Source: a phage. Taken from it: 38,505 nucleotides of DNA. Below the pieces are notes generated by a model. The model did no database searches. It was not told the DNA's origin and saw only the letters and a list, made by a program, of their open reading frames with translations. Below are positions 9,975-15,455 of the stretch, piece after piece (position 1 is the stretch's first letter; each line of letters starts with the position of its first letter). The translations under genes and the position numbers were made by a program. Where the stretch lies: sequence record PX418924.1; one strand, written 5' to 3'.

Positions 9975-10470
9975 GATAGTGTCGCTCTTTAGGTAGTGGC
10001 TTTAGGTCTGGTCTTTAGGTGGAGGCTTTAGGGTTTACTTTATGAGGCTAACAGATAGGGACACATAGAGATGTACTATCGAACTGGTACACTAGGACAC
10101 TCCTTAAGCCCTCCTTAAGCCATCCACCACTTTAGGTATTGACTTTAGGAATCACTTTAGGCTATCCTATAGGCCACTTAAGGAGATACCCAAGGTTAAC
10201 CGAAGGTTAAACCCTAGGGGTAGGGCTGGCTTTAGGTGGCTTTAGGAGGGCTATGGGGGGTACTTTGGGTTCTTGAACTGTGAGATACCCATTCAGATTT
10301 TTGTGGTAAATTCTTAAAGGGGCTCTTTAGGCAACCACTTTAGGTAAGACCACACCATAGGTGAGACCATAGGCGCATCCCGAAGGGATAGCTAGGAGAC
10401 ACCAGAATACCCTGTAAGACCATTACGAACTACAGGGCATCTTTAGGTATAACCTTTAGGGTTGGCTCTA
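9975..10470 (-). repeat. Dispersed CCTAAAG heptamer arrays flanking and inside the terminal repeat
   Basis: More than 15 copies of ctttagg on the plus strand (CCTAAAG on the phage strand) at irregular spacing, as in the T7 end regions. Confidence 0.8.
10052..10285 (-). repeat. Terminal direct repeat, single copy in this circular representation; mature left end predicted at 10285
   Basis: Minus strand reads TCTCACAGTTCAAGAACCCAAAGTACCCCCC from 10285, matching the T7/T3 left-end start; inner boundary placed by analogy to T7 (...CCCTATCTGTTA). Confidence 0.5.
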
Positions 10471-13701: not shown

Positions 13702-15399
13702 TTATGTTGTGCCGTCCTCTGGCTTTGTTGATTGTCCTTCGAGTTCTTTAACGCGTTGACGCAGTGCCTGCATCTCAGTGATTACGTCAGCAAGCAACGC
13801 CCTGTCGTTGGTATTCAAAAGACTACCTTCTGCGGTGGTCGTGAGGTATGTGTACAGCGGGTCAATCGTGTCAAGCTGTTGGGCCAGCCACCCACGTTTA
13901 CGTTCCCCGGTGGCAATCTCTGTGTATTCCACTATGCCAATTGCGTCAATACGCTCACCAGCACCATCAAGAGGTTTAGTGATATCATCCTTGATTCTAA
14001 TATCAGAACCTGAGGTCATCACATCACCAAGTGGTGTAGATATTTTACCATTGGAGAATAGCTGCCAGTTAGTATCCTTGCTATAACCATTGAGGTTAAG
14101 GATTATCGCGTGGTCTGTACCAACGTGCTCCTGAATATACATACCACAGTACGCACCAAGTGGATCATTCTTAGCACCACGGCCCCGAAGCTGTGAGCGA
14201 ACTGCCACAGAATTGAGGTATTGGCCAAGATATGGATTAGGTGGCGCATCCACATATGCGATGACATCACCCTTAGCTCGCGTTGGCCCTGTAAAGTCAA
14301 ACCTGTTGGTATCTGTAATAACAAAACCAGCACGTAAGGTGGATGAAGTACCAGACACACGGTAGTTCTCGAAGTGCATGCCCCCTGCATCATCCATATA
14401 AATCCTGTTGGCATAGTTCACTCCATTCATGGTCTTATCTTGGTATAGCCCATTGTGGTTCAGTATTGATACTCTACCGTCTCCTTTAATGGTGAAGTCA
14501 CCCTTCATGACAACATCGTTACCGTTGACTGAATCAATAGCAGCAGCAAAGTCATTCATGTTAGTCAGCTTAGTAGCCTCCTCAGAAGCCTTAGCAGCGC
14601 TCGATGCAGCGTTAGTCTCAGAGGTCTTAGCGTTAGTCTCAGAGGACTTAGCGTTAGTCTCAGAGGTCTTTGCATTCCCCTCAGACGTACTTGCGGCGGC
14701 GGCACTCTTGGAGGCCTTCCGTGAGTAGTGATACGCAGAGAACTCGCTACCCTGAACCGGAGAGTCCTCTGCACGCTGCGCCCATTGATGCGCGTTGTTC
14801 TCGGAGGTCTTTGCGTTGTCCTCAGAGGTCTTAGCGTTGGTCTCTGAGGTCTTAGCGTTGGTCTCTGAGGTCTTAGCAGCGGCCTGAGAGGTAGCAGCGG
14901 CGTTCTTAGAGTTCAGGGCAGACTCGTTCCACCGAGTGACTTGACCTAAAGTGATAGCATCACCGAGGTCAACACCATCAGCTACGTTTATGATACGACG
15001 ACCACGAGCATCAAGGTTGCCATCATTGTTCACACCAATGGTATCAGCCGTTAAGTCACGAGCCTCTTCTGCAACGTGAAGGGTTTGAACCTGAGAGATG
15101 TTCAGGTCGTATGCCCGAAGGATTGAACCATCGGTGAAGTCAACCAGCCTATCGGTAGCTGAGGTAAATCGACGGATTTCAATCATGTTATAACCGTCCG
15201 CTGCCCCCCACGCTCTCGTTGTGGAGATTGTGGTCTTAGTCGCAAAACGATAGTCTTGATTCAAGATGAGTTCCTTTCGGTCAACACCGATAAGGGTCAC
15301 TCTGACGAACTTACGCGCTAGATACTCGAACGGAATATTAAAGTCCGTAGTGGAGCCATCCAGCGGGTAAGTCATCACGGTCTTAATAGTTGTAGCCAT
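13702..15399 (-). CDS. 17: Tail fibre protein gp17 (565 aa)
   Basis: MATTIKTVMTYPLDGSTTDFNIPFEYLARKF matches the T7 gp17 N-terminus; start at 15399 with GGAGGT 4 nt upstream. Confidence 0.93.
   Translation of the reverse strand: MATTIKTVMTYPLDGSTTDFNIPFEYLARKFVRVTLIGVDRKELILNQDYRFATKTTISTTRAWGAADGYNMIEIRRFTSATDRLVDFTDGSILRAYDLNISQVQTLHVAEEARDLTADTIGVNNDGNLDARGRRIINVADGVDLGDAITLGQVTRWNESALNSKNAAATSQAAAKTSETNAKTSETNAKTSEDNAKTSENNAHQWAQRAEDSPVQGSEFSAYHYSRKASKSAAAASTSEGNAKTSETNAKSSETNAKTSETNAASSAAKASEEATKLTNMNDFAAAIDSVNGNDVVMKGDFTIKGDGRVSILNHNGLYQDKTMNGVNYANRIYMDDAGGMHFENYRVSGTSSTLRAGFVITDTNRFDFTGPTRAKGDVIAYVDAPPNPYLGQYLNSVAVRSQLRGRGAKNDPLGAYCGMYIQEHVGTDHAIILNLNGYSKDTNWQLFSNGKISTPLGDVMTSGSDIRIKDDITKPLDGAGERIDAIGIVEYTEIATGERKRGWLAQQLDTIDPLYTYLTTTAEGSLLNTNDRALLADVITEMQALRQRVKELEGQSTKPEDGTT
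14600..14885 (-). repeat. Imperfect 21-bp tandem repeats inside gene 17
   Basis: gcgttagtctcagaggtcttagc units in two clusters, encoding AKTSETN-type heptad repeats. Confidence 0.85.
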
Positions 15400-15455
15400 G
15401 TGACCTCCTTTGTAAATTAGCATTAAGAGAGAAGAGGCCAGAATGTGACCTCTCT

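Follow-up and report, generated by a model that had tools for sequence, protein, structure and literature searches.

In-frame 21-bp repeat arrays in the predicted coiled-coil shaft of a T3-like tail fibre gene and their variation among relatives

Collagen-like (Gly-X-Y) repeat tracts in the receptor-binding protein genes of dairy streptococcal and lactococcal phages, as well as the coiled-coil stalks of variable length in trimeric autotransporter adhesins, share short in-frame repeats, a trimeric fibrous segment, a variable number of repeats and use as recombination points at which receptor-binding modules are swapped. Their repeat chemistry (collagen triple helix and hydrophobic-core stalks, respectively) differs from that of the phage tail fibre analyzed here, and we know of no report of a total length being kept by offsetting changes in either system; some homologues of this fibre do match the Pfam family YadA_stalk (PF05662). 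In the gp17 tail fibre of phage T7, the proximal region was described as a triple helical coiled coil based on AFM, AlphaFold and MD in a paper that also refers to this region as structurally unresolved and reports that the fibres of free virions rest back against the capsid (bioRxiv 10.1101/2025.10.22.683886). In the depolymerase DpK2 of Klebsiella phage RAD2, cryo-EM revealed that the part preceding residue 191 forms an extended triple helical bundle, seen at low resolution and without an atomic model (PMC8552709). A T3/T7 hybrid arose by a crossover at codon 167 of gene 17 via 8 nt of identity (PMC3276506). For the locus analyzed in this study, we consider it quite probable as a whole that the heptads encoded by two repeat arrays form a coiled-coil shaft, that units are gained and lost, that the arrays act as crossover points and that the total is held at 120 residues.

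The fibre gene of the window (i.e., the whole 38,505-nt stretch of phage DNA analyzed, record PX418924.1) is a T7/T3-type gp17 (Autographiviridae, Studiervirinae) of a Teetrevirus genome, whose backbone shares 96–97.5% identity with Teetrevirus (T3-like) phages across 23 kb. It occupies positions 13702..15399 on the minus strand and encodes 565 aa beginning with MATTIK, as established from the ORF list, PF03906, PHROG tail-fibre families and alignment with T7 gp17 PDB entries. The match to PF03906 (Phage_T7_tail; 196 bits vs. a cut-off of 25.2, E 3e-58), which spans residues 9–163 of the 573-aa ORF, places the N-terminal tail-attachment domain at aa 1–155 (14935..15399, minus strand), a domain also matched by N-terminal fragments of T7 gp17 (PDB 8e4g and 8dsp). 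The T7 gp17 PDB chains align residue by residue with aa 1–314 of the fibre protein (HMMER, E 5e-88). The alignment stops at aa 314, and T7 gp17 gave no region matching the C-terminal Peptidase_S74 intramolecular chaperone domain of the window fibre (13858..14007, minus strand; PF13884, 25.7 bits vs. a cut-off of 22, E 1.4e-5), which belongs to the same gene as the arrays and lies outside the repeat feature. The synteny is that of gp17, with gp16 upstream and holin (17.5) and gp18 downstream, and the flanking ORFs (1320-aa gp16-like, 67-aa and 88-aa) follow the order annotated in ten relatives. Translation probably starts at the ATG at 15399 (MATTIK) and not at the upstream ATG at 15423 chosen by the ORF finder: a Shine-Dalgarno sequence AAGGAGG, deduced from the codons of MLIYKGGHM, precedes 15399, and the equivalent ATG (MATTIK or MANVIK) is the start in all annotated homologues. 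The 8 codons added by the longest ORF are probably not translated. Two overlapping ORFs, one on the plus strand (14429–14728) and one in a minus frame (14565–14774), were rejected as by-products of the repeats, their translations being repetitive (LVSE/LRL) and lying within a well-supported gene.

The initial annotation of this DNA had pointed to two clusters of near-identical 21-bp units encoding heptads in the fibre gene, and both the clusters and the heptads are confirmed. Tandem Repeats Finder (TRF) yielded period-21 arrays at 14608–14670 (3.0 copies, 95% matches, score 119) and at 14792–14877 (4.1 copies, 90% matches, score 130; extendable to 14892 at 85%), as compared to a highest score of 59 (mean of the maxima 41) in 100 dinucleotide-preserving shuffles of the window; none of the remaining TRF arrays in the 38.5-kb window scored above 51. 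The quoted unit, gcgttagtctcagaggtcttagc, is present at 14609–14631, and a repeat search assigned both arrays to a single family of 7 members spaced 21 nt apart. With the gene running on the minus strand, the C-proximal array is the one with the lower coordinates. Based on TRF and codon listing, the N-proximal array A (aa 175–203; 14791..14877, minus strand) is composed of four 21-bp units (AKTSETN, AKTSETN, AKTSEDN and AKTSENN) plus one Ala, with a degenerate unit AATSQAA directly N-terminal to it, and the C-proximal array B (aa 238–264; 14608..14688, minus strand) reads TSEGN AKTSETN AKSSETN AKTSETN A. Both arrays are in frame with gp17, and the heptads quoted earlier occur exactly in the minus-strand translation at aa 175–202 and 238–264. 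The arrays are genuine in-frame, head-to-tail tandem duplications beyond chance. Over the heptads no Pfam repeat family (e.g., Phage_fiber_2, PF03406) matched even at E ≤ 1; literature searches gave only unrelated words for heptad peptide strings (KTSETN, SETNAK, among others) and no relevant result on the copy number of tandem heptad repeats in tail fibres.

Heptads of the AKTSET(N) type would build much of two alpha-helical segments of the proximal shaft, which by homology with T7 gp17 would be a parallel triple coiled coil. Shaft helix 1 (aa 151–212; 14764..14949, minus strand), supported by AF2 secondary structure at a pLDDT of about 70–79 and by the entropy at positions a and d, holds array A; shaft helix 2 (aa 222–287; 14539..14736, minus strand), supported by a pLDDT of about 69–87 and by entropy, holds array B and has the conserved KLTNMNDFA junction at its end. 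Both helices (H151–212 and H222–287) are continuous in the AF2 model, with pLDDT mostly at 70–87, the model being that of a monomer and of moderate confidence (mean pLDDT 67, pTM 0.29). The heptad register is unbroken from V154 to W206 and then from A222 to I288, with position a occupied by V154 and by A161 through A203 in helix 1 and by A222 through A271, L278 and A285 in helix 2, and position d by W157 and by S164 through W206 in helix 1 and by Y225, S232 through S267, E274 and M281 in helix 2. Column entropy in 62 sequences is 0.54–0.90 bits at a and d vs. 1.54–2.15 bits at b, c and f; position a is Ala in 68–71% and position d is Ser in 52–61% with W, Y, M and I in addition, and near the end of helix 2 residues A271, E274, A275, K277, L278 and N282 are invariant in relatives. 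The a/d core is made of Ala and Ser with bulky residues at the segment ends only, i.e., small, polar and atypical for a stable coiled coil, but in keeping with the homologous rods of T7 and DpK2; V154, W157, W206, Y225, L278 and M281 appear to clamp the segments at their ends.

The shaft location proposed in the initial annotation holds, since the arrays both fall within the AF2 helices 151–212 and 222–287 and align to T7 gp17 residues ~160–290 (i.e., the proximal coiled-coil half-fibre), the likeness of the T7 gp17 PDB entries to the shaft arrays being at the sequence level only. The two fibres have the same heptad register, Ala at position a and a shaft ending at a KLxNxN junction, with the Ala/Ser of the window heptads aligned to the Ala/Phe of the T7 heptads (xAxxFxN and variants). 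T7 gp17 differs in that its heptads are not encoded by tandem DNA repeats and carry Phe, Tyr or Trp at position d instead of Ser, and its shaft, measured between the same anchors, is 108 aa long and lacks the break-forming 5-residue insertion of the window fibre. Nearly the same heptads (AKTSEDN AKSSENA AKNSEVA, residues 128–178) are found in DpK2 (PDB 7LZJ; also 7VYV and 7VZ3), where AKTSEDNAKSSENAAKNSE (PDB 7LZJ) falls in the extended triple helical bundle part, whereas this protein is of the beta-helix tailspike class, has about 3 heptads only and shows no break motif in the aligned part. An identical AKxSExN consensus, in tandem and with Ala/Ser-rich interruptions, was also found in IMG/VR contigs of unrelated phages (30–215 kb; L031, L036, L053 and L066), although their tail-fibre-like ORFs have far longer arrays (at least 10 units), no T7-type N-terminal domain and no counterpart of the WAxxxEDxPVxGxE[FY]SAYHYS break of the window fibre. 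By homology to T7 gp17, the shaft would probably be a trimeric coiled coil. Very unlikely, in our estimate, is a flexible and largely disordered low-complexity spacer rich in Ser, Thr, Asn and Ala, in which the 7-residue period would be a by-product of 21-bp duplication. Such a spacer would fit the polar, low-complexity composition, the Ala/Ser (not Leu/Ile) core and the moderate AF2 confidence, as well as the ability of the T7 proximal region to unwind in AFM (bioRxiv 10.1101/2025.10.22.683886); nevertheless, the strict a/d conservation runs on into the flanking bulky core residues, the heptads align in register with the T7 Ala/Phe heptads, natural indels are all whole heptads, the AF2 helices are continuous, and the homologous T7 and DpK2 segments look like triple helical rods.

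The two helices of the putative coiled-coil shaft are separated by a non-helical break at aa 213–221 (SPVQGSEFS; 14737..14763, minus strand), where AF2 predicts no helix and pLDDT falls below 50 at 213–219. The break lies within a conserved motif, QWAQRAEDSPVQGSEFSAYHYS (aa 205–226; 14722–14787, minus strand), which is kept in 68 relatives, and corresponds to a 5-residue insertion relative to the uninterrupted T7 gp17 heptads (a gap in the HMMER alignment); the register shift across it is likewise 5 residues (68 mod 7). Beta-layers of trimeric coiled coils arise from 2 or 6 residues inserted into the heptad pattern (PMC4786415). A reading of the break as a beta-layer (alpha/beta coiled coil) was rejected because the insertion is of 5 residues, not 2 or 6; moreover, Pro and Gly are present and AF2 gives a 9-residue non-helical stretch.

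Comparison across relatives, as the initial annotation had proposed, shows that repeat number does differ. The alleles compared for array A are at least 93% identical, with identical flanking codons, yet Poynor has 3 units there, the window, F1M1C and P0001 have 4, and ECA2 has 5; in array B, relatives carry 2 to 4 AK[TS]SE[TN]N units. Without exception, the shaft length classes are whole multiples of 7 residues apart. Since a unit is exactly one heptad, its gain or loss would leave the coiled-coil register undisturbed and change the shaft by about 1 nm, and variants of this kind exist and are viable. Units within a genome are identical at the DNA level (e.g., four of the five array A units in ECA2 are fully identical 21-mers, and the fifth deviates only in its last codons), which implies that these events are recent. 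Gain and loss would proceed via replication slippage or unequal recombination, and we infer slippage as the mutational mechanism.

Recombination at the repeats, also anticipated in the initial annotation, is evidenced in the window itself by a foreign patch bounded by the two arrays. This patch of 167 nt (gene nt 576–742, aa 192–247; 14658..14824, minus strand), delimited by 143 informative sites and mismatch bins, is of the NL_ZS_3/GP-5 type and sits in an otherwise F1M1C/ECA2-type allele, with one breakpoint inside array A and the other inside array B. NL_ZS_3-type states are found at 23 of the 24 informative sites in the patch, and F1M1C-type states at 71/74 and 36/37 sites in the flanks. 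Where alleles are otherwise diverged, the arrays still offer short runs of identical DNA and on that account act as crossover points. In the T3/T7 laboratory hybrid, too, the distal fibre was exchanged by recombination at the shaft start via a very short identical stretch, except that the crossover is just upstream of the array A position and tandem repeats are not involved. Megablast homology to many relatives stops at query nt 516, 603, 815 and 878; these end points fit module boundaries at the arrays and are weak evidence, because divergence and low-complexity filtering also end alignments.

That fibre length could vary between isolates, as suggested at the outset, stands as far as the 3-, 4- and 5-unit alleles are concerned, but it does not extend to free drift. 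In 57 of the 68 break-bearing relatives (84%), the shaft is exactly 120 residues long (W157 to K277), this sample being composed mainly of the best 120 of ~1,650 protein homologues plus nine phage records. The 120-residue shafts are partitioned around the break in four ways (34/65, 41/58, 48/51 and 55/44) in sequence-distinct families, including highly diverged ones (Patroon-type, CT02-type, ENN-type and P0059) that are all at 120, while uncompensated totals of 106, 113 and 127 are rare tip variants. Were the two segments to vary in length independently, a total of 120 would be expected in 37%, as calculated from class counts with kinship ignored. Two IMG/VR scans for break-bearing shafts contributed only two new members, both 48/21/51, so that the length statistic rests mainly on the 120 best matches and nine records; the remaining IMG/VR matches were mostly T7-type shafts (108 aa), phiYeO3-12-type shafts (125 aa) and unrelated fibres.

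The window architecture, 48/21/51, is the modal one, seen in 27 independent sequences, which bears on whether its unit number was set wrongly by short-read collapse or expansion of the repeats. We regard such an assembly artefact as highly improbable. Tandem repeats are indeed a known assembly hazard, and in the Logan contig L011 (encoding P0003) array A is joined straight to array B with 68 aa, or 204 nt, deleted, which could be an assembly collapse. Nevertheless, the arrays span only 63–100 bp each, below the typical read length, and their units are not all identical within each array and are therefore individually placeable.

Over longer times the total would be held at 120, each loss of a unit being matched by a gain across the break. 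Such offsetting of gains by losses argues that length is constrained and not free, from which we infer selection on shaft length; a possible reason is the need of T7-group fibres to fold back against the capsid. Some of this seeming compensation may stem from mechanism and not from selection, because one out-of-register double crossover between the two arrays shifts the break by one heptad while leaving the total unchanged. A constant total produced by mechanism instead of selection, via double crossover or gene conversion between arrays A and B when these pair with a uniform 21-bp offset, is in our view a rather unlikely account, if one to be taken seriously. Both arrays share a period and nearly the same unit, the window contains a conversion patch from array A to array B, and GlastosBack/F2M1C (41/58) and the very similar NL_ZS_3/GP-5 (48/51) differ by one unit per side. 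However, single-array slippage also occurs (Poynor, ECA2, P0027 and P0037) and without selection would widen the length distribution, and out-of-register pairing accounts for individual shifts but not for long-term constancy at 120 in diverged families. Mechanistic length neutrality can also act together with selection.

Unlikely too, and more so than a mechanistic constancy, is an adaptive length-tuning (contingency) locus, at which rapid shifts in shaft length or break position would adapt the fibre to the surface layers of different hosts (e.g., LPS or capsule thickness) and copy number would be a host-range determinant. The DNA-identical units would be in line with this, as would uncompensated variants from different hosts with nearly the same distal domains (113 aa in Poynor from Klebsiella and 127 aa in ECA2 from E. 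coli vs. 120 aa in F1M1C from Pantoea). On the other hand, these hosts are isolation hosts given in records and not tested host ranges, 84% of relatives are at exactly 120 aa with 106, 113 and 127 being rare tip variants, and in-frame units do not allow on/off switching as in classical contingency loci. Selection for a constant total could be extended, tentatively and with slightly better prospects than the purely mechanistic account, to a shaft that is a molecular ruler of interchangeable heptads: slippage and recombination would move the break (a possible hinge) in 1-nm steps, with W157–K277 kept at 120 by selection (e.g., for docking of the folded-back fibre on the capsid), so that the break position and not the fibre length would be tunable.

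Overall, the repeat region is nothing unusual in a T3-like tail fibre, and the label "coiled-coil shaft, heptad repeats" suffices for it. In short-read assemblies of gp17-type genes, the unit number and array-to-array deletions of the P0003 kind warrant checking. The arrays are natural, register-preserving sites for the exchange of shaft segments and distal receptor-binding modules and, therefore, sensible junctions for chimeric fibres; the addition and removal of heptads in nature, with the total usually back at 120, suggests that a certain length is required, which should be heeded when fibres are designed.

Both arrays of 21-bp repeats lie in frame within the minus-strand ORF 13702-15423, the tail fibre gene gp17: with the ATG at 15399 as start, residues 1-155 match the T7 tail-fibre attachment domain PF03906 (Pfam, E 3e-58), its PHROGs matches are to tail-fibre families only, T7 gp17 PDB chains align to residues 1-314 (E 5e-88), and the neighbouring ORFs follow the order gp16 - gp17 - holin - gp18, as annotated in ten relatives. 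An ORF finder places the start at ATG 15423 (MLIYKGGHM...), and codons 15399-15423 hold the Shine-Dalgarno AAGGAGG for the 15399 start; since homologues start at the equivalent of this latter ATG, after AAGGAGG, the eight codons by which the longest ORF extends further upstream are probably untranslated (residues are numbered here from MATTIK). TRF detects the minus-strand gp17 arrays at 14608-14670 (3.0 copies, 95% matches, score 119) and 14792-14877 (4.1 copies, 90% matches, score 130; at lower identity this array reaches 14892), while the remaining scores are at most 51 anywhere else in the 38.5-kb window and the maximum in 100 dinucleotide-preserving shuffles is 59. A repeat search of the window placed all units of both arrays in one family with 21-nt spacing. 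The two clusters noted in the initial annotation are thus confirmed, its repeat unit was located at 14609-14631, and the peptides quoted there are the minus-strand translation: AKTSETN, AKTSETN, AKTSEDN and AKTSENN (aa 175-202) in the N-proximal array A (14791-14877), and TSEGN, AKTSETN, AKSSETN, AKTSETN and A (aa 238-264) in the C-proximal array B (14608-14688).

The conserved motif QWAQRAEDSPVQGSEFSAYHYS lies between the arrays. An AlphaFold2 monomer model (62 homologues) predicts helices at aa 151-212 and 222-287 (pLDDT mostly 70-87), separated by a low-confidence, non-helical break at aa 213-221. With the Ala of AKTSETN in heptad position a, the register runs continuously from V154 to W206 and then from A222 to I288. 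In the 62-sequence alignment, position a is 68-71% Ala and position d 52-61% Ser (otherwise W/Y/M/I), and entropy is lowest at a and d (0.5-0.9 bits) and highest at b, c and f (1.5-2.2 bits), a pattern of conservation that marks a coiled-coil core. Predicted helices and a/d conservation in the repeat region therefore fit a coiled coil, and the proposed location in the gp17 shaft is supported by PF03906, the T7 gp17 alignment and the coverage of both arrays by the helices. A disordered low-complexity spacer is an unlikely reading of this region, given the a/d conservation, the predicted helices, indels of whole heptads and rod-like homologues.

The T7 proximal half-fibre, as yet without an atomic structure, is a triple helical coiled coil by AFM, and AlphaFold and MD predict likewise (bioRxiv 10.1101/2025.10.22.683886). 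In the HMMER alignment, the Ala and Phe of the T7 gp17 xAxxFxN heptads face the Ala and Ser of the window's protein. Five residues are absent from T7 exactly at the break. By coiled-coil theory, a 5-residue insertion is hard to fit in helical form (PMC4786415); the one in the window, with Pro and Gly among its residues, is predicted to be looped out. A beta-layer at the break was ruled out, as it needs 2 or 6 inserted residues rather than 5. In two gp17-like shafts (L093 and L094; IMG/VR 3300030000_000206 and 3300030003_000046), the break motif W..ED.VVSGGLYSSYHYSRK occurs twice, at a distance of about 60 residues, so this module can itself undergo duplication.

A profile search of the window's gp17 matched no Pfam family covering the heptad repeat. 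DpK2, the depolymerase of Klebsiella phage RAD2 (PDB 7LZJ), carries nearly identical heptads (AKTSEDNAKSSENAAKNSE) at residues 128-178; N-terminal to its residue 191, cryo-EM revealed an "extended triple helical bundle" that was left unmodelled (PMC8552709). An IMG/VR scan also found AKxSExN heptads, in arrays of at least 10 units, on unrelated viral contigs of 30-215 kb, where they lie in fibre-like ORFs; because of these occurrences, the heptad is regarded as a widespread phage-fibre building block. Its broad spread is illustrated by a 972-aa fibre-like ORF of unrelated large phages (IMG/VR contigs L066 and L067, 215 and 105 kb), with several blocks of identical KTSETNA heptads split by Ala/Ser-rich stretches and a globular insert.

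At its C-terminus, gp17 carries a Peptidase_S74 intramolecular chaperone domain (aa 465-514; 13858-14007, minus strand; PF13884, 25.7 bits vs. a cut-off of 22) preceded by SGSDIRIKDD, which suggests that the C-terminal ~95 residues would be cut off after trimer assembly. The domain is common to many Teetrevirus homologues; the T7 gp17 alignment ends at aa 314. In Pantoea phage F1M1C, the annotation shows a 523-aa gp17 and a separate 66-aa hypothetical ORF downstream (record L003, 2597-2819), compared with one unbroken 565-aa gene in the window; this split may reflect a frameshift or truncation in the chaperone region.

Teetrevirus genomes (including PoeticCupcake, Seera and phiYe-F10) are 96-97.5% identical to the window over 23 kb outside the fibre gene. 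The nearest fibre alleles (Poynor, ECA2, F1M1C) are only 93-95% identical in DNA, and the backbone is closer to phages other than their carriers; therefore, by sequence comparison, the fibre gene is a distinct mosaic allele. The nearest protein among the best 120 of ~1,650 homologues (P0001, 94% identity) is encoded on a 39,039-nt contig and carries the NCBI label of a phage tail fibre protein from Brucella melitensis; this complete T3-like genome within a Brucella assembly seems to be contaminating phage DNA, not a phage of Brucella. In T7/T3 genomes, short CCTAAAG repeats adjoin the terminal repeats. The window holds 23 CTTTAGG heptamers (vs. 3.6 expected by chance over its whole length), 13 of them clustered at 9987-10460 (plus strand) in a way that resembles those repeats. 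The window's assembly is probably circularly permuted and reverse-complemented, the physical genome ends lying near this cluster.

The window, F1M1C and NL_ZS_3 share the same shaft architecture, which allowed a base-by-base comparison with 143 informative sites. The window agrees with F1M1C at 71/74 sites in gene nt 189-575, with NL_ZS_3 at 23/24 in nt 576-742, and again with F1M1C at 36/37 after nt 743. The foreign patch (14658-14824, minus strand) therefore spans the break and has one end inside each array, bearing out the suggestion that the repeats are prone to recombination. A T3/T7 laboratory hybrid with a crossover at gene 17 codon 167 via only 8 nt of identity (PMC3276506) provides an experimental precedent for short-identity exchange in the shaft region.

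Copy number proved variable between isolates, as had been anticipated: among alleles at least 93% identical, with identical codons flanking array A, this array has three units in Poynor, four in the window, F1M1C and P0001, and five in ECA2. ECA2 has four copies of one 21-mer plus a fifth unit that departs from it in its last codons only, which points to recent duplication. Further relatives differ in array B or the adjoining AASQQA unit, and all length differences among 68 relatives with the break motif are multiples of seven residues. An assembly error in the window's unit number is unlikely, since typical reads are longer than the arrays, one unit can be told from another and the window's architecture is the modal one. 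A Logan contig (SRR24079949; L011, 950-2413) encodes a 487-aa gp17 (P0003) 95% identical to the window's, with array A fused straight to array B and without the 68 intervening residues, the break among them; this may be a genuine recombinant between the arrays or a collapse in assembly.

The predicted variation in fibre length is seen, with the qualification that total length is mostly conserved. Shafts of 106, 113 and 127 residues (W157 to K277) exist as rare, uncompensated tip variants, but in 57 of the 68 relatives with the break the shaft measures exactly 120, partitioned around the 21-residue break motif as 48/51 (n=27), 41/58 (n=24), 34/65 (n=5) or 55/44 (n=1). These partitions are spread over clearly different sequence families (Patroon-type, CT02-type, ENN/ETN-type, P0057 and P0059), and a shift separates even very close relatives (48/51 in NL_ZS_3 and GP-5 vs. 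41/58 in GlastosBack and F2M1C). The 120-residue total is observed in 84%, vs. ~37% expected with independent segments (counts uncorrected for shared ancestry). Other gp17 clades have fixed shaft lengths of their own (108 in 11 T7-type loci, 125 in the phiYeO3-12 type). Such a strong modal length disfavours an adaptive length-tuning locus. If arrays A and B paired with a uniform 21-bp offset in register, a double crossover between them would shift the break by one heptad in one length-neutral step and would explain single shifts, but it leaves unexplained why single-array slippage never broadened the lengths over time. Stabilising selection on rod length, plausibly for fold-back and docking of the fibre on the capsid, would also account for the constant total, and both could apply; T7 fibres of free virions are folded back onto the capsid (bioRxiv 10.1101/2025.10.22.683886).

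Overall, the feature is of a known kind, a T7-group tail fibre shaft with coiled-coil heptad repeats, and the allele that carries it is a new mosaic one; what may be new is the offsetting gain and loss of heptads, by which the shaft stays at 120 residues as the helix break shifts.
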